A stretch of DNA of 64,000 nt from Escherichia phage ECD7. The position numbers were made by a program, and so were the translations under genes. The notes below the pieces were generated by a model. The model did no database searches, was not told where the DNA came from, and saw only the letters and a list, made by a program, of their open reading frames with translations. Shown here piece by piece: positions 30,830-43,174 of this stretch; within the stretch, counting starts at the first letter, position 1, and every line of letters begins with the position of its first letter. The stretch lies in the sequence record NC_041936.1. The stretch is one strand, 5' to 3'.

Positions 30830-31486
30830 TTAAATGTTCGCGAGAATCGCGCTTTCAAATTCTTCTAATGTACCATTATTTATGATAATGGTTTCACCGT
30901 CAATAGGCAAAATTCCTTTTTCGGTGGAGTGAGTCGATACAATACCAGTATCACGATGAATATGCAACACCTTAGCACCCATAGAACGCATGAGAGCAAT
31001 TTCAATAGGCTGACGCACATCAACCACTACAAAATACCCTTCTTCATTTTTGCGCTTCATAAACTCATTCACGAAGAGATTACACCAATAAAGCGGATTG
31101 ATCAAGTTAACCATTATATCAGTACCGAGAGTGGTTAACATGAGACGAATAGACCAGACGTTATTATGTTTTTCGCCAATCTCATTAACGACCTTGTAAA
31201 TCTCAGCCAGACGATCACAAGTAAAGGAACTACCGCCATACTTCGAATCTAACATAAGCAGACACTGAATAAACCACTTATGCGCGGTATAGGTATCAAT
31301 ACCTAGATCGGCTTCTCTGTCACGCCCTAACCCGTCAAAGTCAAGATAAGTCAGACCTAAGTCTGGTTGACATTCGCATAAGATTTCTTTGATCGGTGCT
31401 GCCAGTTGATAACTGTGTCCATCAATGATTAACGCGGCAGTGTCTTTTCCTACTCGCTTTTTACCACAAAGTGCAATCAATTTCAT
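30830..31486 (-). CDS. 1: deoxynucleoside monophosphate kinase
   Basis: 218 aa; P-loop CGKKRVGKDT; T4 gene 1 position. Confidence 0.8.
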   Translation of the reverse strand: MKLIALCGKKRVGKDTAALIIDGHSYQLAAPIKEILCECQPDLGLTYLDFDGLGRDREADLGIDTYTAHKWFIQCLLMLDSKYGGSSFTCDRLAEIYKVVNEIGEKHNNVWSIRLMLTTLGTDIMVNLINPLYWCNLFVNEFMKRKNEEGYFVVVDVRQPIEIALMRSMGAKVLHIHRDTGIVSTHSTEKGILPIDGETIIINNGTLEEFESAILANI

Positions 31487-31501
31487 TATATAAGCCTCTT
31501 A

Positions 31502-32092
31502 TTACTTTCTAAAAGCAGGGTGCATAGCTTTAATACCTTCCACCCGCTGACGATCCGCCGCCTGAATTGCTGGGCGAGGAACGATCAGTTGACCATCACG
31601 TTCAATGCTCATTGTTTTAAATGGAAGAATTGCAGTACACACCAGAGATTCATGCATATCATCAGTGTATGTTAACTCAAGTTCCCCCAATTGTGAACAC
31701 CAACAACCATAAAAGTTAAAGGTGCAAACAATGTTACGGCGTTCATTGTCCATCATGTGAACTTGAACGGCTTCCGGCATTGAATCCTTCCACGCTGTGG
31801 AGTTACCGTTATTGTAGTCTACTATAGAAAGCATCCATGTGTAAAGGTTTAGATAGCTTTCCAAATGCTCATCAACGATAAACCGGACTACCAACGGGTC
31901 AAACTCCACATGACTAGACGGATAATCAGCAACCGCCAAACCATATTGACCAGCAACTTGCTTAGTCGGTGGAATGGTTATAGCAGGAAGTGTAACACAT
32001 TGACAGTTTAAAGTAAAGCCTTTTGTTAGTTGACCATCTGGAATATTGATCTGCCAGTTGCTAGGGTTAGCATAGTTAAAGAGATTAGACAT
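31502..32092 (-). CDS. 3: tail completion / sheath stabiliser protein gp3 (by position)
   Basis: 196 aa ORF between gene 1 and gene 2; call is synteny-based. Confidence 0.55.
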   Translation of the reverse strand: MSNLFNYANPSNWQINIPDGQLTKGFTLNCQCVTLPAITIPPTKQVAGQYGLAVADYPSSHVEFDPLVVRFIVDEHLESYLNLYTWMLSIVDYNNGNSTAWKDSMPEAVQVHMMDNERRNIVCTFNFYGCWCSQLGELELTYTDDMHESLVCTAILPFKTMSIERDGQLIVPRPAIQAADRQRVEGIKAMHPAFRK

Positions 32093-32282
32093 TACTGATT
32101 CCTCAAATGAAAATATTTATTAACAATTGTCGCTTTGCGACGTGCCGGAGGCACTGACTACTTTTTAACCGAAACAAATTTTCTATTATTCTAAAGATCT
32201 TTCTTCGTTTTGGTTATGTTTTAACCAATAACTATATTTTTATACAGTAATAAATAAAACGGGTACTATACGAGGACTTCTT

Positions 32283-32537
32283 ATGACAGAAGACATTTTG
32301 TTAAAACTCTATGATCGTCTGGATAACGAATTGGCAACATTGCGGGGTGAAGTTCTCTATTTGTCTAAATGCAATACAGATCTGCTTAAGCAGATTGCAG
32401 AAAGGGATGATCAAATAAAATCCCTTTCAGGTGCATTACGTGATCGCGACAAGGCATTAGAGATTTTACAGCGTGTTACCAATAAGGAAGAATTAAAAGA
32501 CTTCTTACATGGTTATGCTCATGCCATCGATCTATAA
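32283..32537 (+). CDS. hypothetical coiled-coil protein, opposite strand to neighbours
   Basis: ORF track 84 aa; only plus-strand ORF in the early block, adjacent to the HE-like gene. Confidence 0.35.
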   Translation: MTEDILLKLYDRLDNELATLRGEVLYLSKCNTDLLKQIAERDDQIKSLSGALRDRDKALEILQRVTNKEELKDFLHGYAHAIDL

Positions 32538-32567
32538 TAAAAAAGCCCGTCAATGACGGGCTTAATT

Positions 32568-33602
32568 TTAATATGTATCAGCTAATTTAATTATGTTATC
32601 AAGTTCCGTGATTGGTAAAGTTTCTGTGTATCCATCTTTCAACATGGATTTATCAACAACGCCACAATGATAAGTTCTCTTTATTTCCTTTTCAAGTTCC
32701 CACGGAATCCAGCCATCAACACTTTGTTTGACGTAAACAAGTTTGTGAACAAACTTAGATTTCTGCATATGTTGTTTCATTCTGGTTTCCGGTAATTCAT
32801 TGGTTACACCAAACTTTATAAATTTATCATCTAACGTCTGGATATAAAAATATCCCATCTCAGATGGACGATAGCCAGAAGAACTACATTTCGGACACCC
32901 TTTAGCATTTCTGTTGAACGTACAATATCTTACAGAAAATTCTGCGTCATGTTTTGTACATTTAAGTTTTATCCATGAATTTGCAGTACCTATCCATTCA
33001 CCATCGACACCTATATATTCATACCCTAACTTTTTACATTTATCTTCTATTCTAGATAGTGCATCTTCCACGGGAACGACATATTCCGTCTTAAATTGTT
33101 CAGCCGCACATTTCTTACAACCACATGTACCATGATTTTTAAAATCAAAGAACTTTGTATTCTTCCAAATGTGGTCATGTTTCTTGCATCTAAGAATCAT
33201 CTTAGTAATTTGTGATTTCCAGCCACCAACAAATCCCAAAAATTCATAATCAAGATCTTTACATTTTTCTTCAATGAATTTGGTTGCTTCCTCTTCTGTC
33301 ATAACTCCCCTACATTGAGGGCAACCAACAATAACCTTTTTAGCATAGAAACTATTACTGGAAACATCATAGACAGTTCCATGCTTATTGCATTGGATAA
33401 CAGATCTAGTCAATTTTCCTTTCCATTCTCCAGAAAATCCTAAGAATGTATGGTCGACAAGTTTACATCTTTCAATAACTTTATCCGCAAATTCTCTAGG
33501 AGATTTTGTTACCTTGTTTACTCTGTATTCTATTTCTTCCGGTTGACGAAGATAATAAACGTGGGGATTGCTCCCCACGGAATTAATATTAATATTAAGC
33601 AT
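32568..33602 (-). CDS. putative homing-endonuclease-like protein: three Cys-containing repeats plus C-terminal T5orf172/GIY-YIG-like domain
   Basis: ORF 32568..33704 trimmed to the Met overlapping the gene 2 stop; three ~55-aa repeats (..C.KHG...GCP.C..); C-terminal GYFYIQTLDDKFIKFGVTNELPETR...ELEKEI. Confidence 0.45.
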   Translation of the reverse strand: MLNININSVGSNPHVYYLRQPEEIEYRVNKVTKSPREFADKVIERCKLVDHTFLGFSGEWKGKLTRSVIQCNKHGTVYDVSSNSFYAKKVIVGCPQCRGVMTEEEATKFIEEKCKDLDYEFLGFVGGWKSQITKMILRCKKHDHIWKNTKFFDFKNHGTCGCKKCAAEQFKTEYVVPVEDALSRIEDKCKKLGYEYIGVDGEWIGTANSWIKLKCTKHDAEFSVRYCTFNRNAKGCPKCSSSGYRPSEMGYFYIQTLDDKFIKFGVTNELPETRMKQHMQKSKFVHKLVYVKQSVDGWIPWELEKEIKRTYHCGVVDKSMLKDGYTETLPITELDNIIKLADTY

Positions 33603-34416
33603 CCTTCCACACCTTCCTTGCATCATAGTTTTTACCTTTAGAAACAAATTTATATGTGTTAAGGTAGATAATATTGCTCCAGTCTTTCGGGCTAATCTCA
33701 ACAAGTTTTGTTTTAATGTGTCCAGGTAGATATGCTTTGATCATGTGGTCACTACCACGCATACCTTTTACATCGCTCCATTTGATTTTTAAGCGTGTTT
33801 TATTGCTCAAGGTAGGAGTAGATGCATATTGCTTTAAAAGTGCCTCTAAAAACTGCTGACGGGCTTTAGGCGTTACATAGTGTAAGTTAAGACCCAGCAT
33901 TACAGTATTACCCGCCTTTGTCTTAGAATCACCCAGACAAATGATCAGCGGGAAAACATCCCAATATGGCAAAGTGTCTTTATACTTCGCATCATACATA
34001 AAGGTATAGATTCGCCCTACTTGCGGTTTTACAATCTGGTGTCCCTTTATTCCCGCTTTTATTGTTTTAGTAAACCACTCCTGTGATTTTTCTTTAGGGC
34101 GACTCTTTGATACAGCACGCATAGACGCACGAAAATCATTAATCATCATCATTGCGCGTTGCTGCTTATTGAGACCCTTTGCGCCTTTCCCTTTTAGTTT
34201 TTCAACTTCTATTGCTGTTTTAATTTCGCTGGCATAACGAGACATACTTTTAGTGAAAGTCGCATAGGCTATTCCCTTAGAATCTGCAAATGCTTTAGCT
34301 GTCATTCCTTTGGCTTTTGCTTTCGCAAATTCTACACCCAATTCGACCCACTGTTTAGACTTTCTTTTTTGGGGAGACGGCTTTTCGTCTTCTGTGATTA
34401 TTTCAAATACGCTCAT
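33595..34416 (-). CDS. 2: DNA end protector protein gp2
   Basis: 273 aa, T4 gp2 size; position between gp3 and gp4. Confidence 0.75.
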   Translation of the reverse strand: MSVFEIITEDEKPSPQKRKSKQWVELGVEFAKAKAKGMTAKAFADSKGIAYATFTKSMSRYASEIKTAIEVEKLKGKGAKGLNKQQRAMMMINDFRASMRAVSKSRPKEKSQEWFTKTIKAGIKGHQIVKPQVGRIYTFMYDAKYKDTLPYWDVFPLIICLGDSKTKAGNTVMLGLNLHYVTPKARQQFLEALLKQYASTPTLSNKTRLKIKWSDVKGMRGSDHMIKAYLPGHIKTKLVEISPKDWSNIIYLNTYKFVSKGKNYDARKVWKDA

Positions 34417-34427
34417 AATATTATCCT

Positions 34428-34901
34428 CTATTTGTTAAGCCCTTTAAAGCCAAACACTTTCTTTAATGCATGTTCGGTTATGATCTTAAACTCCATGTTA
34501 TGCTTTTGGCATAATTTCACGGCAGCTAACCATTTTTCAGTATTTTTTGTGTACGTCCATACTTCATGCATATATCGTTGCTTTGTCTTCGCGGTCATTC
34601 TTTTTGGCTTTTCCGGTGGCCTTGTCTCTTTAGCTGGTTTAACTTCCCATAAATGCTCCTTGCCATCATCAAACTTAACGTAAAAATCCATAAAGTATCT
34701 GTGTCTTTTCCCGTCTGTTGATGACTCATAAGGAATTACTACGGTCTCAGATCCCCATTTTGCAACTCTAGGATTGCGGTCTAGCCACTGCATGATCCAT
34801 CTTTCCCAGCTTGAACGGTATGTGATCTTACGTATATCCCCTTTATACTTTTCCTTATTCTCAGGAACATACTTGCCCTTATAAGTGTTAGATCCTCCCA
34901 T
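34428..34901 (-). CDS. 4: head completion protein gp4
   Basis: 157 aa starting MGGSNTYKGKYVPENK; T4 gp4 position opposite gene 53. Confidence 0.75.
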   Translation of the reverse strand: MGGSNTYKGKYVPENKEKYKGDIRKITYRSSWERWIMQWLDRNPRVAKWGSETVVIPYESSTDGKRHRYFMDFYVKFDDGKEHLWEVKPAKETRPPEKPKRMTAKTKQRYMHEVWTYTKNTEKWLAAVKLCQKHNMEFKIITEHALKKVFGFKGLNK

Positions 34902-34916
34902 TTTAGCACCCTTTAT

Positions 34917-34924
34917 TATAAATA
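34917..34924 (+). promoter_or_regulatory. late promoter box TATAAATA upstream of gene 53
   Basis: Exact T4 late consensus about 32 nt before the ATG, in the divergent 4/53 intergenic region. Confidence 0.55.
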
Positions 34925-34956
34925 CATAATACTATTTATCAATTGAGGGTGATAAA

Positions 34957-38190: not shown

Positions 38191-40091
38191 CAAAGCAAAA
38201 GATTACACAAATTCCTGATATTTTTAATGCTGCTACATTCGATGAAATTAAAAGCGCATTAACAGACTGGATGAGAAACCAGGAAGAATTTAAAGATTTT
38301 GATTTTAATGGTGCTGGTATTAACGTATTGATGGACTTGCTCGCATATAATACCCTTTATATTCAGCAATTCGCCAACGCCGCGCTATATGAATCTTTTA
38401 TCAGAACGGCAATTAAGCGTAGTTCAGTTGTTCAAGCCGCGCAAGATTTAGGATATTTGCCAGCGAGCAAAACGAGTGCATCGACTACAATTATGTTGCA
38501 TGTATCACATCCGCGAAATCCGGCAAGTATTCGAATCCCACGAGGAACTAAATTTATTGCAAGTGTGGATCGCCAGACGTCTTATCCGTTTGTGACTACA
38601 GAAGACGTTGTGAGCGTTTTAGGTTCAAATGGTTTATATACGCCTATGCTTAAAGTCGCACAAGGTCGTATTGTTCGTACAGAAATGTTATTTGATCCGA
38701 AGAAACAAATTCTGATCCGTGATCCTGATATTGACCGCGCTCAGGTTAAGTTGTGGGTAGACGGTGCTGAATGGAAAGACTGGACGCGAGAAAGTATTGT
38801 TAATGCAACTGGCGCTAGTAATATTTTCTATCTGCGTGAAACCGTAGACGGACATACTGAAATTTTCTTTGGTGAGGGTGAATCAACTTTATCTGCTGCT
38901 GGCGGTGCACTGGAAGCAAATTATATTGGTGGACTTAAGCCGTCAACTGGCGCTAATATTGTTATTGAATATATCAGCACTAAGGGCGCGGAAGCAAACG
39001 GTTCAGTTAATTTCACATACGCGGATACCCTTGCATCTATCTCTATTGTTAAAATTATTGAGAATCCGACAAATGATCGTGATTATGTCGGTGCAGATGG
39101 TGGTGGTGATCCTGAATCAATCGAACGTATTCGTGAACTTGCTCCGGTAATGCGTGAATCTCAGCGTCGTTGTGTAACTGCGTCCGACTATGAGGCTTTT
39201 GTATCTAGCCGTTTTGGTAGTATTGTTCAGGCGGTACAATGTTTCACCGACCGAGAAAAACCGGGTTATGCTTTTGTTGCTGTTAAGCCTAAATCTGGCT
39301 TGCGCTTGACAACTGTTCAAAAAGAAGATATGCGGGATTATCTGGCAAAATATAATCTTGCCCCTATCACTCCGAGCATCATTGACCCTAACTATCTGTA
39401 TATTAAACAGAATATTAAAGTTTCCTATTCAATCAATGACTTGTCAGAATCAGAGCAGTGGTTGCGCGGTGCGGTTATTGATCAGATTGATGCATATTAT
39501 ACCGACGAAGTGGAAATTTTTAACCAGACCTTTAGTAAGTCTAAAATGCTTGCGCGTATTGACAAAGCTGATGTATCTGTGATAGGTTCTAGTGCAGAAA
39601 TAGAGATGGTGCGAGAGATCGACAACTTCTATAAAGCACCGATGGCTGGAATCAAGTTTTTAAACCAGTATAAGAGCGGAATCAAGTCTAGTTCATTCAA
39701 CTTCGAAAAGGACGACAAGCAATATCCAATCCATTATGTAAGTACAGAAATGAACAAAGAATCCGGTTTAGCTAAATTGCTGGTTGGACCTTTCCCTGTT
39801 GATTCTACAATCGCTTTACCGCACTATTCCGGCACTGATTTTGATAAAGAGGTTATCGACGGTGCGGACCTATACTTTGAGGTTGGAGAGGTTCAGCATT
39901 ATGACGACCTTATTTCATGGGATCTGGGTAAACTGAATATCAATAGCGATCGCTTTACTGGTTCATATATTGAGTTGACAGCTAAACCGATTGCTGATAA
40001 CATCTTTACTAAAGACGGTTCTTTGATCGTGTTTGAAAACGATCTCCGTCCTCAGTACACAACTATTAGTCTGGAGGCAATTGCTCAATGA
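38187..40091 (+). CDS. 6: baseplate wedge protein gp6
   Basis: 634 aa (T4 gp6 is about 660 aa); synteny. Confidence 0.85.
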
Positions 40092-43000
40092 TTAAAGCGC
40101 CTAGTGTAACTAGCTTGACAATAGAAAAATTGTCTGCTAATCAGGCGTATATCACATGGGATGACGTAGGCGAAAACTTCTTTTATTTTGTGGAGTTAGC
40201 CGAAACCAGAACGCGAGACGGGGAGATCATCCCCGTCGATGAGTTAAGCTGGGTAAACCTGGGATATACTGCCGATCAAAACTGGTTTGAGGATAAAAAC
40301 CTTTTTCCAGAATATTATTACAAGTTTCGTGTAGCAGTAGCCGCAGAAGGATTTGAACAAAGTAAATGGGTTGAGACAGAAGAGTTTCAGACATTTAAAA
40401 CAAACGCATATAATTTTTCTATGATGCGAGAGTTCAACCTTGCAAACGAGTTTATAAAGGAAAAATTTACATACGATAATCGAGAGTATGTCAAGTTTAA
40501 TACTGACCTGATTCAAGCATCATTGATGAAGGAAGATTTTGTCTTTAGTCCTGAATATGCAAACATGACAAATATCTCAAACTACATTGTAGTTGATGAG
40601 AACTTTCATGAAATACAGGATCACATAGAAAAAGTTTGTACTGATATAAACCGCACAATGTTAGCGGAAATGAACGGTGTTTTGTACCTTTTCGAACGGT
40701 TCCAGCCGATCGTGAAAGTGTCAAATGATAAAGGTCAATCATGGAAAGCATACAAGGCTTTTAATGATCGTGTAGGCAATCCGGTTTCCCGCACATGCGT
40801 TTATCAGTCTAAAACCACTACTTACGTTTTAGGATATGACCGAATCTTTTACGGACGACAAGCTAGCGATACTCGATGGAGCGCGGACGATGTTCGATTT
40901 AGTGATGATACGATCACTTTTGCAAAGGTTGGTGACGAGAACGATTTAGGCTTTGATGTTGAGGTCTTTGGTGTATTTTCCAGATTAACAGGTGATACCA
41001 CAAAATACGCCGAAGCTATGGCGTGCAGTGATGACTATTTGTGGGTTGGTGCTAAAGATGTTATTCGCCGGATTCGTCTTAAGAATACTCCTGTTGATAC
41101 CGTACAGGGTTCGCCTACGTTTGGAGAAAAAATATTCGATCCTGATGTTATACGAGTAACAGGAAATGATAAAGCTGTCATTCAGAAAATGGATGTGATC
41201 GACGGTAAATTGCTTGTATTTGTTACGGGTGAAGTTAAACAGCGTTATCAAGATCCAACTAAACCAGAAAACGTTGTTCCGTCAGATGATGCGGGTGTAT
41301 ACTTAATAGGGAGTGATGGTCTGTCTTTTCAGAGAGTATTTGGCAACACTCCGCAGGAAAGGGAATATATTCAGCACGGGTTCAGTAATATGTCAACCAA
41401 TGGTGATGAGGTGTTCATAAGCCATTATAATCATCACTTCGAAAGCATTTTACCTGATCCAGAAACTGCCGCAAAATATGAATTAGGCGAAGCTGTAAAA
41501 TATTCTCAGGAGCCAACTTATCTAACTGATAAGAAAATACATCAAACTACTTTCAGAGCAAGTTATGATGATTTGCGTATTTGGGAGTTAGGACCGCAAG
41601 CGTATTATAACGAGGCTGATTATACATGGATGCGTCGAAACGGTGTCCGTGTGTGGATCACAAATGATAATCGCCCGTTGGTTGTTTATCCAGAGGTTGT
41701 CTATACTCAAGAAGTTGATACATCTGGCATTCTTGACCAAAATAGGGTTAACCGAGAAGTTTATGATAAAGGGACCGTGACCTGTTATCTTAACAATGTT
41801 AAATTTGAAGGATTCAAACAATATGCATCCGGTGTAATGTTCCATAAAAACACAGGAGAGATCATTGGATTCTATCAATTTAATTATCGTGTTCGTGATC
41901 AGGTTGGTGTATATTGGAAACCTACAAATGTAGCATTTGTTGCTGAATTGCAAAATCAGGTTAGAGAGGTTCCCTGGGTTCCGGTTCACTACGATCGAGA
42001 GCAAGATCCAGATTTGCGGCCTTTACTGAATAAGATGACCCCTGATAGCTTTTTACTTGAGAACGAAAATTTCAGAAAATTCTCTGAATATTATCTGCAA
42101 TTCTTAAGCGATGGTTCAGGAACATATTATAATAAACTAAAAAATCTGATTAAAAACAAATATCCACGCGAGAAAGATGCATATGAGTATCTTTGGTCAG
42201 AGATGAACAAACGAAACATCTATGCAGATAAAAACAAGCGAGATGCGGTAGTAAGATTCTTTGAATCCCGCAAATCAGATTTTTATTCCACTAAGGGCGT
42301 GGAGGCTTCTTATAAGTTCTTGTTTAAGTTACTTTATAATGAAGATGTGGAAATTGAGGTTGAATCACAAGCCGGACTAGAGTATGATATTGTTGTTAGT
42401 TCAACGAACATTGACGAGGATATCGTAGGTCGCACGATTTATACTCCAACCGGACGGGCTAACGTGACGTATCTTGAAAGGGAATATGAAGGTGGTCGCC
42501 TACGCTGGCGAGTAACCATTCATAACCTGATCGGGCGGTTCGAAGAAGGTCAAGTGATCAAATCAGAGAAAACAGCGTTTGAAGGGATGATCCTTGTTGG
42601 TGTACGTGGTAAAGAGTTGTTGAGTAGTTCAATCGACTATATCAACCGCTCACGAAGCCAATACACCATGAAGATTAAAAGTGCATTGCCAGTTTCGCGC
42701 TATGCAAATGATGTAATGCGATTCGTTCATCCTGTCGGCTTTGGGTTTATCGGTGTTACCCTGCTTACAATGTTCATTAACAGCGGGTTAAGCATGAAGC
42801 ACACCGAGACTATAATTCAATCTCTGAAAAATTATAAGTTTGACAGCGGATTGCCTAGCGTGTATCCTGATCGGGTGGCAGACCTTGACGTTGACGGAAA
42901 CATTAAGAAAGACCCGCTTACCGGAAAAGCATTATATTTGACTTCACCTTTAATTGGTGAAGAATTTCCGGTTCCTCCTGAATATGATCAGGAGAACAGC

Positions 43001-43174
43001 GAATTGTTCCACGGACTTAAAGCAAGCGAACGAAGATTTGCAATGAGTCCACTGTTTGACCAGTCGGCGGTAACATTCTCTATGTTCCGTGAACTTGTAG
43101 ATAAACGGTTGAAGGATAATATAGGGAATCCACGCGATCCGAAGAATCCGACACAGAGGAAAATTAATGGCTAA
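40088..43174 (+). CDS. 7: baseplate wedge protein gp7
   Basis: 1028 aa (T4 gp7 is about 1032 aa); synteny. Confidence 0.85.
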   Translation: MIKAPSVTSLTIEKLSANQAYITWDDVGENFFYFVELAETRTRDGEIIPVDELSWVNLGYTADQNWFEDKNLFPEYYYKFRVAVAAEGFEQSKWVETEEFQTFKTNAYNFSMMREFNLANEFIKEKFTYDNREYVKFNTDLIQASLMKEDFVFSPEYANMTNISNYIVVDENFHEIQDHIEKVCTDINRTMLAEMNGVLYLFERFQPIVKVSNDKGQSWKAYKAFNDRVGNPVSRTCVYQSKTTTYVLGYDRIFYGRQASDTRWSADDVRFSDDTITFAKVGDENDLGFDVEVFGVFSRLTGDTTKYAEAMACSDDYLWVGAKDVIRRIRLKNTPVDTVQGSPTFGEKIFDPDVIRVTGNDKAVIQKMDVIDGKLLVFVTGEVKQRYQDPTKPENVVPSDDAGVYLIGSDGLSFQRVFGNTPQEREYIQHGFSNMSTNGDEVFISHYNHHFESILPDPETAAKYELGEAVKYSQEPTYLTDKKIHQTTFRASYDDLRIWELGPQAYYNEADYTWMRRNGVRVWITNDNRPLVVYPEVVYTQEVDTSGILDQNRVNREVYDKGTVTCYLNNVKFEGFKQYASGVMFHKNTGEIIGFYQFNYRVRDQVGVYWKPTNVAFVAELQNQVREVPWVPVHYDREQDPDLRPLLNKMTPDSFLLENENFRKFSEYYLQFLSDGSGTYYNKLKNLIKNKYPREKDAYEYLWSEMNKRNIYADKNKRDAVVRFFESRKSDFYSTKGVEASYKFLFKLLYNEDVEIEVESQAGLEYDIVVSSTNIDEDIVGRTIYTPTGRANVTYLEREYEGGRLRWRVTIHNLIGRFEEGQVIKSEKTAFEGMILVGVRGKELLSSSIDYINRSRSQYTMKIKSALPVSRYANDVMRFVHPVGFGFIGVTLLTMFINSGLSMKHTETIIQSLKNYKFDSGLPSVYPDRVADLDVDGNIKKDPLTGKALYLTSPLIGEEFPVPPEYDQENSELFHGLKASERRFAMSPLFDQSAVTFSMFRELVDKRLKDNIGNPRDPKNPTQRKING

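Follow-up and report, generated by a model that had tools for sequence, protein, structure and literature searches.

Homing endonucleases of the T5orf172 family consist of one to several CapR/DUF723/DUF4379 repeats followed by a T5orf172 domain, and they are widespread as free-standing genes beside essential phage genes (PMC10448857). CapR itself, encoded by the Vibrio cholerae satellite PLE, is a repressor with a zinc-finger DNA-binding domain that comes from phage homing endonucleases with a C-terminal T5orf172 domain (PMC8096241). ICP1 Odn, a T5orf172 nuclease, cuts DNA in vitro and is inactivated by changing a conserved glutamate (PMC8263062). Here, we describe a predicted member of this family in Escherichia phage ECD7 (NC_041936.1), a Krischvirus, that is, an RB49-like T4-type coliphage, in a stretch of 64,000 nucleotides that is called the window below. 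An open reading frame (ORF) of 344 codons plus stop, located directly after gene 2 on the minus strand, is read as a free-standing T5orf172-family homing endonuclease gene that would target the 3′ end of gene 2; we give this reading, in which cleavage and homing are predicted, a probability of roughly 0.78.

According to the 2023 family survey, T4 itself is without T5orf172 genes, and neither its available text nor the supplementary tables mention RB49, Phi1 or Krischvirus (PMC10448857). Outside its Table 1, which covers phi1-unique genes, the accessible part of the phi1/RB49 comparison paper mentions segC and RB49 ORF040 as the sole homing endonucleases. The gene is therefore a well-supported case of a kind already described in other phages, with orthologues already deposited, and it belongs to a lineage for which this family has so far gone undiscussed.

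Comparison with described systems

With the described T5orf172/CapR enzymes (ICP1 gp174, gp165 and gp130, and those of T5-like and Aeromonas phages; PMC10448857, PMC8096241), the Krischvirus gene shares the domain order with CapR repeats first, the free-standing location beside an essential structural gene and a repeat content that varies between alleles. It differs from them in its T4-type host genome (Straboviridae, Krischvirus) and in the divergent branch to which its C-terminal domain belongs, the window sequence lying below the Pfam thresholds. Judged by its sequence features, the gene belongs to the T5orf172 homing endonuclease family.

The likeness to the T4 Seg enzymes (SegA-G) and I-TevI lies in the GIY-YIG superfamily fold and in the placement of the free-standing gene amid conserved genes of T4 type. 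For the Seg enzymes, double-strand-break repair with co-conversion of flanking markers is an established route of spread; for the Krischvirus gene, we expect the same route. Unlike in Seg and I-TevI, the nuclease domain is C-terminal, CapR repeats take the place of NUMOD or helix-turn-helix domains, and the motifs read GYFYIQ and KFGVTN rather than GIY and YIG. No NUMOD or helix-turn-helix family was found in the window protein, and the GIY-YIG profile PF01541 matched it only at E 0.045. The nuclease-last order, which the first-pass annotation of this DNA had contrasted with Seg endonucleases, does set the protein apart from them but is standard among T5orf172 homing endonucleases (PMC10448857, PMC8096241).

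ICP1 Odn (Gp88; PMC8263062), for which alone in the wider family cleavage in vitro has been published, likewise fuses a sequence-specific binder to a T5orf172-type domain at the C-terminus, in which an Arg and a Glu are conserved. Its DNA-binding domain, however, is RepA_N, and it acts as an anti-satellite weapon and not as a homing element, whereas the activity of the Krischvirus protein is predicted. PLE CapR (PMC8096241) has a homologous zinc-finger DNA-binding domain but is a repressor without a nuclease domain, whereas the Krischvirus protein has three repeats and keeps a complete, intact-looking C-terminal nuclease-like domain.

An optional gene at a fixed site next to gene 2

Positions 31400-34500 of the window are matched at 90-99% identity by 57 phage records, all from Escherichia, Shigella or Krischvirus phages. 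The minus-strand order is gene 4, gene 2, the endonuclease ORF, gene 3 and gene 1 (Table 1), whereas in T4 genes 3 and 2 are direct neighbours separated by 106 bp, an adjacency that had been stated correctly. The endonuclease gene is present in nine of the 57 records (ELT3, FL37, FL38, G2248, Cognac, Skers, pEJ01 and two records of Phi1) and absent from about 48, and it always occupies one junction, exactly between the gene 2 stop and a bidirectional terminator hairpin. In the metagenomic phage L006, whose sequence around this site is only about 80% identical, the junction is occupied by an allele with 75% identity. Comparison of the junction in relatives thus agrees with the mobile insertion proposed in the first-pass annotation: an optional gene at one fixed site beside a conserved, essential gene, missing from most relatives.

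The extent of the insertion had been overestimated. The proposed island of about 1.5 kb comprised the ORF, an opposite-strand 84-aa ORF and a 190-nt AT-rich spacer; all are present, but only about 1.03 kb is variable, barely more than the endonuclease ORF itself. The 84-aa coiled-coil ORF (RB49ORF130w) and the spacer were found in 14/14 related Krischvirus loci, 13 of them from phage records and one from a metagenomic contig, whether or not the insert was there, so that the 84-aa ORF is a resident gene outside the mobile unit, and the 1.5-kb island was abandoned as a single unit. The insert has a G+C content of 33-36%, against 40-44% in the adjoining genes, and its ends are ambiguous by a common TTAAT. 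Taking this TTAAT at both ends for a target-site duplication was considered and dropped, as 5 bp of AT-rich sequence are uninformative. Homing leaves no target-site duplication.

The endonuclease ORF has an ATG (33600-33602) that overlaps the stop codon of gene 2 (33595-33597) within ATGCTTAA, as first noted, yet the true start may be one of two additional in-frame ATGs 7-8 codons upstream, at 33623 and 33626. A start at 33626 would give 352 aa, and this longer form is used in one database cluster and in the FL37 annotation; distant homologues start further downstream, which makes the short form at least as likely. In the window phage, the 5′ end of the endonuclease gene contains a tandem duplication of 6 bp (ATTAAT, 33582-33587), so that the protein begins with MLNININS, against M(L/R)NINS in Phi1, Skers, L006 and cluster P0001, the carriers with which it was compared.

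CapR repeats and a C-terminal nuclease domain

The N-terminal part of the protein consists of CapR-type zinc-finger repeats, the module found in T5orf172-family homing endonucleases. The CapR homology domain PF21817 matches three stretches of the window protein with 55.6 bits against a cut-off of 24.2, which confirms the zinc DNA-binding modules that had been suspected here. Three repeats had been counted, with a length of about 55 aa; the count is right, with pairwise local scores 13-20 standard deviations above shuffles and 0/500 shuffles reaching them, but the period is 68-75 aa. The repeats span residues 33-100, 101-175 and 176-243, and their coordinates in Table 1 stop at residue 241, where the part assigned to the nuclease domain begins. 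Each repeat has a C-x2-H...C-x2-C arrangement (C71/H74/C94/C97, C139/H142/C162/C165 and C215/H218/C236/C239), the Cys residues of which are invariant or nearly so in 81 full-length relatives, and each is modelled as a helix, three strands and a helix.

The C-terminal domain of about 100 aa carries the motif GYFYIQ...KFGVTN...R...E...GYTETL. Its assignment to T5orf172/MUG113 comes through homologues rather than from the window sequence itself. Among 11 homologous C-terminal domains (28-50% identical), 8 match MUG113 and 6 match T5orf172 at E <= 10. Homologues that are 31-50% identical in the domain exceed the MUG113 gathering score of 22.3 (27.9, 26.9 and 26.1), and one scores 25.9 against a T5orf172 gathering score of 20, over profile positions 1-96 of 101. 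The 81 full-length relatives (E <= 0.001) include 75 with CapR, 23 with MUG113 and 9 with T5orf172 matches. The whole protein is assigned to a PHROG family labelled as endonuclease (Table 1), and orthologues are annotated as ‘endonuclease’ in Phi1 and as ‘putative GIY-YIG nuclease family protein’ in Skers.

The AlphaFold model of residues 242-344 is confident, with a predicted local distance difference test score of 95.8 and a predicted template modelling score of 0.87, and has a beta-beta-alpha-beta-alpha core. Its best matches among solved structures are GIY-YIG nucleases, with modest scores and a consistent fold; PD-T4-3, EF2693, AtGRXS16, I-TevI, UvrC and Eco29kI appear lower in the match list. 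Among predicted viral structures, 93 models match the domain at E <= 0.001 with TM up to 0.95, and CapR, GIY-YIG, T5 Orf172 or homing endonuclease stands in the names of several. Furthermore, Y253, K263, G265, R274, E304, G324 and E327 are 92-98% conserved in 154 relatives (R274 in 98% and E327 in 92%), and all are kept in the window protein. Homologue scores and model fit thus both agree with the T5orf172/GIY-YIG-like C-terminus that had been recognized in the letters of the ORF.

The family is large, with 2130 representatives at E <= 0.001 in a 50%-identity library, and tblastn detects related sequences in 451 phage records, among them those of T5 and of Vibrio, Aeromonas and Klebsiella phages. 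Three full-length homologues with 33-35% identity (P0004, P0005 and P0007) lie on Salmonella enterica contigs of 169-683 kb; the family thus also occurs in bacterial chromosomes, possibly in prophages. Six relatives (P0011, P0013-P0015, P0017 and P0018) combine the same zinc-finger repeats with another C-terminal module, with the motif FDFYLPE...IE.DG.QH, which suggests swapping of nuclease modules on a common DNA-binding scaffold. In a Foldseek search of the whole-protein model against the PDB, the best matches were tandem double-stranded-RNA-binding-domain proteins (TARBP2, Loqs, R2D2 and NF90), weakly (E 2e-3, probability 0.5). These matches stem from the topology of the repeats and are not informative on the nuclease; the modelled CapR repeat may have a topology like that of double-stranded-RNA-binding domains plus a zinc site, or the likeness may be chance.

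Within the window, we found no paralogues of the endonuclease gene. A single weak tblastn match, inside a 1028-aa ORF at 40088-43174, was dismissed as chance. The PADLOC defence models gave no meaningful match and NCBIfam gave none.

A diverged gene 2 patch linked to the insert

The 3′ end of gene 2 next to the insert is hypervariable. Between the window and RB49, 20 differences fall in 82 bp (33589-33670), whereas the remaining 2990 aligned bases contain 49 (Fisher p = 1.3e-16), so that the patch diverges by about 24% from the allele without the endonuclease gene, compared with 1.6% elsewhere; 14 of the 23 gene 2 codons that differ are within the last 23. Over 33590-33720, all seven window-type carriers are 100% identical, and 39 records without the gene are at 80-90% identity, nearly all of them RB49-type (84-85%). 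In a haplotype table of 14 phages, 19 informative sites of the patch form one invariant block with the gene, whereas the informative sites outside it, only 9-40 bp away on the left and starting some 80 bp further on to the right, occur in shuffled combinations in the carriers and are shared with phages lacking the gene. The population signature is therefore a linkage block of the gene and about 70 bp of gene 2 in shuffled backgrounds. Such a pattern is the expected trace, although not proof, of a homing endonuclease that would cut inside the 3′ end of gene 2.

Some of the differences between carriers and RB49 in 33598-33626 are synonymous (GAT vs GAC at codon 265, AAG GTG vs AAA GTT at codons 268-269), and as a result only the carrier-linked allele has the in-frame ATGs and a AAGGAAGG motif in the endonuclease frame. 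Because some patch changes create this motif and the extra ATGs, part of the recoding may serve expression. The ATGs are retained at the empty sites of MIZ4 and kvi.

Allelic variation

The Phi1 allele has 80.6% protein identity to the window allele, with the differences concentrated in two places. At the DNA level, the two are 98-100% identical in the nuclease domain, repeat 1 and the N-terminus, against 42-73% over repeats 2-3 and 65-80% in the gene 2 patch, and of all parts of the protein the nuclease domain varies least between the alleles of the window, Phi1 and L006. In both repeats 2-3 and the gene 2 patch, Phi1 resembles the distant L006: over the last 93 nt of gene 2, it is 90% identical to L006, compared with 71-74% to the window and RB49, whereas the 60 nt before these match RB49 completely and L006 at only 78%. 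Since both segments are L006-like in Phi1, the presumed specificity modules and the patch vary together, with constant sequence between them.

It is conceivable, although we hold it to be doubtful, that this represents a natural specificity swap, in which repeats 2-3 and a gene 2 patch of about 90 bp were exchanged together as non-contiguous cassettes, with the nuclease domain and repeat 1 constant. If so, each endonuclease variant would be matched to its own immune home site, and the allele pair would directly assign zinc-finger repeats to the parts of the target that they read. That would be a starting point for a recognition code of CapR-type repeats, and for understanding how a free-standing homing endonuclease can change its target and still spare the genome that carries it. 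A protein-pattern scan of IMG/VR found no further alleles at the site, and an exact 20-mer of the carrier-type junction had no match in IMG/VR and one unrelated chance match in JGI metagenomes.

Transcription signals

No promoter consensus was found between gene 2 and the endonuclease ORF; the nearest good sigma-70-like site on the minus strand lies upstream of gene 4 (34942-34915), and the endonuclease gene is probably co-transcribed with gene 2. A terminator-like hairpin with a U-rich tail (CGUGGGGAGCAAUCCCCACG then UUUAUUAUCUU) is located 20 nt into the endonuclease coding sequence. Its stem is kept in Phi1 and L006, where no compensatory changes are available, and it may attenuate read-through from gene 2. 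The bidirectional terminator at the left insert boundary is common to ORF130w and, in genomes without the insert, to gene 2, from which it is there within 7 nt. This arrangement suggests that most gene 2 transcripts in carriers would still end, at the hairpin inside the endonuclease gene, and that the endonuclease would be made only from read-through. Expression is probably low, given the lack of an evident promoter of its own, the start on the gene 2 stop and the hairpin in the coding sequence. T4 homing endonuclease genes are typically expressed at a low level.

Proposed mechanism and alternative explanations

The homing reading is supported by the domain architecture, by the fold and family of both modules, by the conserved residues, by presence or absence at a fixed site and by the linkage block. 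The three CapR-type repeats would bind a long DNA site, and the C-terminal GIY-YIG-superfamily domain would cut nearby via the conserved Tyr253, Arg274 and Glu327. In co-infection with a relative lacking the gene, the enzyme would most likely cut the RB49-type 3′ end of gene 2, and T4-type recombination would repair the break from the carrier genome, so that the endonuclease gene and ~70 bp of neighbouring gene 2 sequence would be copied. The carrier patch is recoded and presumably not cleavable; the protected allele would have to travel with the gene, adjoining markers would be co-converted and occasional resistant empty sites would be expected.

Several points weigh against this reading. The cleavage site of the predicted enzyme is putative, and on its own the window protein stays under every Pfam nuclease threshold, the best GIY-YIG match being the one at E 0.045. 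Searching all PDB sequences with the C-terminal domain profile gave chance matches only (E >= 0.66), and hhalign of this profile against the I-TevI catalytic domain gave a probability of 0.2 and no usable alignment. The second Tyr of the canonical YIG motif is replaced by Lys/Phe, and R274 and E327 can be equated with I-TevI R27 and E75, or with Odn E180, tentatively and from motif order only. Additionally, three records without the gene have a carrier-type patch (MIZ4 and MIZ5 at 98.5%, kvi at 96.9%); kvi is a mosaic that agrees with RB49 at the three sites closest to the stop codon and with the carriers further on. This pattern fits resistant empty sites and equally plain recombination. The diverged patch could be hitch-hiking donor DNA, or recoding that creates a Shine-Dalgarno motif and ATGs, rather than a trace of immunity, and the co-variation of repeats 2-3 with the patch comes from two allele classes only, is anecdotal and should be taken as a lead, not a result.

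Three other explanations draw on the same observations. If the protein were primarily a nuclease of inter-phage competition that cuts co-infecting relatives or a satellite, as ICP1 Odn does, gene transfer would be a by-product; T5orf172 nucleases can serve in this way (PMC8263062), the predicted cut would hit a late gene that competitors need, most of the related phages lack the endonuclease gene and there are empty alleles of a putatively resistant type. We nevertheless consider exclusion as the main role unlikely, as the gene adjoins sequence that differs between carriers and non-carriers and moves with it as one block, which is the signature of homing; the two activities share the same biochemistry and are not mutually exclusive. 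Somewhat less probable still is a domesticated DNA-binding regulator acting near the gene 2/gene 3 junction, like PLE CapR or like I-TevI as autorepressor, with an inactive or secondary nuclease. CapR is itself a repressor derived from the T5orf172 homing endonuclease family (PMC8096241), and co-variation of the repeats with the adjacent gene 2/start-site sequence is also what an autoregulatory operator would produce, but the full nuclease domain is kept here with every family-conserved residue, as the most conserved part of the three alleles, and the gene is dispensable, being missing from about 48/57 records.

The shuffled flanks raise a further explanation, to which we give very little weight, namely an ordinary accessory gene that does not act on its own locus, acquired once with donor flank and spread or lost by general recombination, the patch hitch-hiking and possibly kept for its ribosome-binding site and ATG. 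T4-type phages do recombine intensely, several patch changes do create the AAGGAAGG motif and upstream ATGs in the endonuclease frame, and cleavage is a predicted step of the homing reading. Left unexplained, however, would be the second allele, with its different repeats plus a separately imported patch and window-like sequence between them, as well as the occurrence of family members beside essential genes in many phage lineages (PMC10448857).

Homing thus being the preferred reading, the gene places a T5orf172/CapR homing endonuclease among the T4-type phages, which are classic subjects of homing-endonuclease genetics; otherwise, a selfish element of this kind is to be expected. Crosses are easy with RB49-like phages, and carriers, empty sites of the sensitive type and empty sites of a putatively resistant type occur naturally, which would make a poorly characterized family directly testable for target choice, co-conversion and immunity. 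In annotation, ‘putative T5orf172-family homing endonuclease’ should replace ‘hypothetical protein’.

Neighbouring genes and other features

Table 1. Coordinates of the predicted endonuclease gene, its parts and its surroundings in the window
Feature	Position	Strand	Evidence
Free-standing homing-endonuclease-like gene, 344 aa	32568..33602	-	ORF translation; PHROG 681 ‘endonuclease’, E 2.6e-79
Three CapR-homology zinc-finger repeats, presumed DNA-recognition module	32880..33506	-	Pfam PF21817; repeat alignments; model
T5orf172/MUG113-like (GIY-YIG superfamily) nuclease domain, residues 242-344	32571..32879	-	
Indel of ~1.03 kb, absent from RB49-type genomes	32562..33588		Three-way and six-way alignments
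Hypervariable gene 2 3′ end, codons 251-273; putative target/immunity patch, holds endonuclease translation signals	33595..33670	-	
Terminator-like hairpin within endonuclease codons 8-14	33560..33579	-	Terminator scan; RNA folds
Bidirectional terminator hairpin, left insert boundary	32543..32563		Scan on both strands; annotated terminator in GEC-3S and G2248; alignment
Gene 2, DNA end protector, upstream neighbour	33595..34416	-	PHROG 429 ‘DNA end protector’, E 2.7e-71; orthologue annotation
Gene 3, tail completion/sheath stabiliser, downstream neighbour	31502..32092	-	Pfam Phage_T4_gp19; PHROG 45; orthologue annotation
RB49ORF130w, conserved 84-aa gene, neighbour of the mobile unit	32283..32537	+	PHROG 17832, E 2.1e-57, full length

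The resident gene RB49ORF130w differs from its L006 counterpart by 14 synonymous and 7 non-synonymous codon changes. Upstream of it (32240-32282), we found AATAAATA; in L006, the corresponding sequence is TATAAATA, the T4 late-promoter consensus. The spacer between gene 3 and ORF130w (32093-32282, 190 nt) has a G+C content of 33-34% in 300-bp windows across it and contains two small hairpins at 32129-32154. The second of these is GTGCCGGAGGCAC, and L006 has its exact reverse complement, GTGCCTCCGGCAC, so that the stem is kept and the loop inverted.

On the other side of the locus, a near-consensus sigma-70-like promoter (TTGATA, 16 nt, TATAAT) at 34915-34942 on the minus strand faces gene 4, and the late-promoter motif TATAAATA at 34917-34924 on the plus strand faces gene 53 and overlaps the sigma-70-like site. 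The gene 4/gene 53 region at 34915-34942 is a compact divergent control region.

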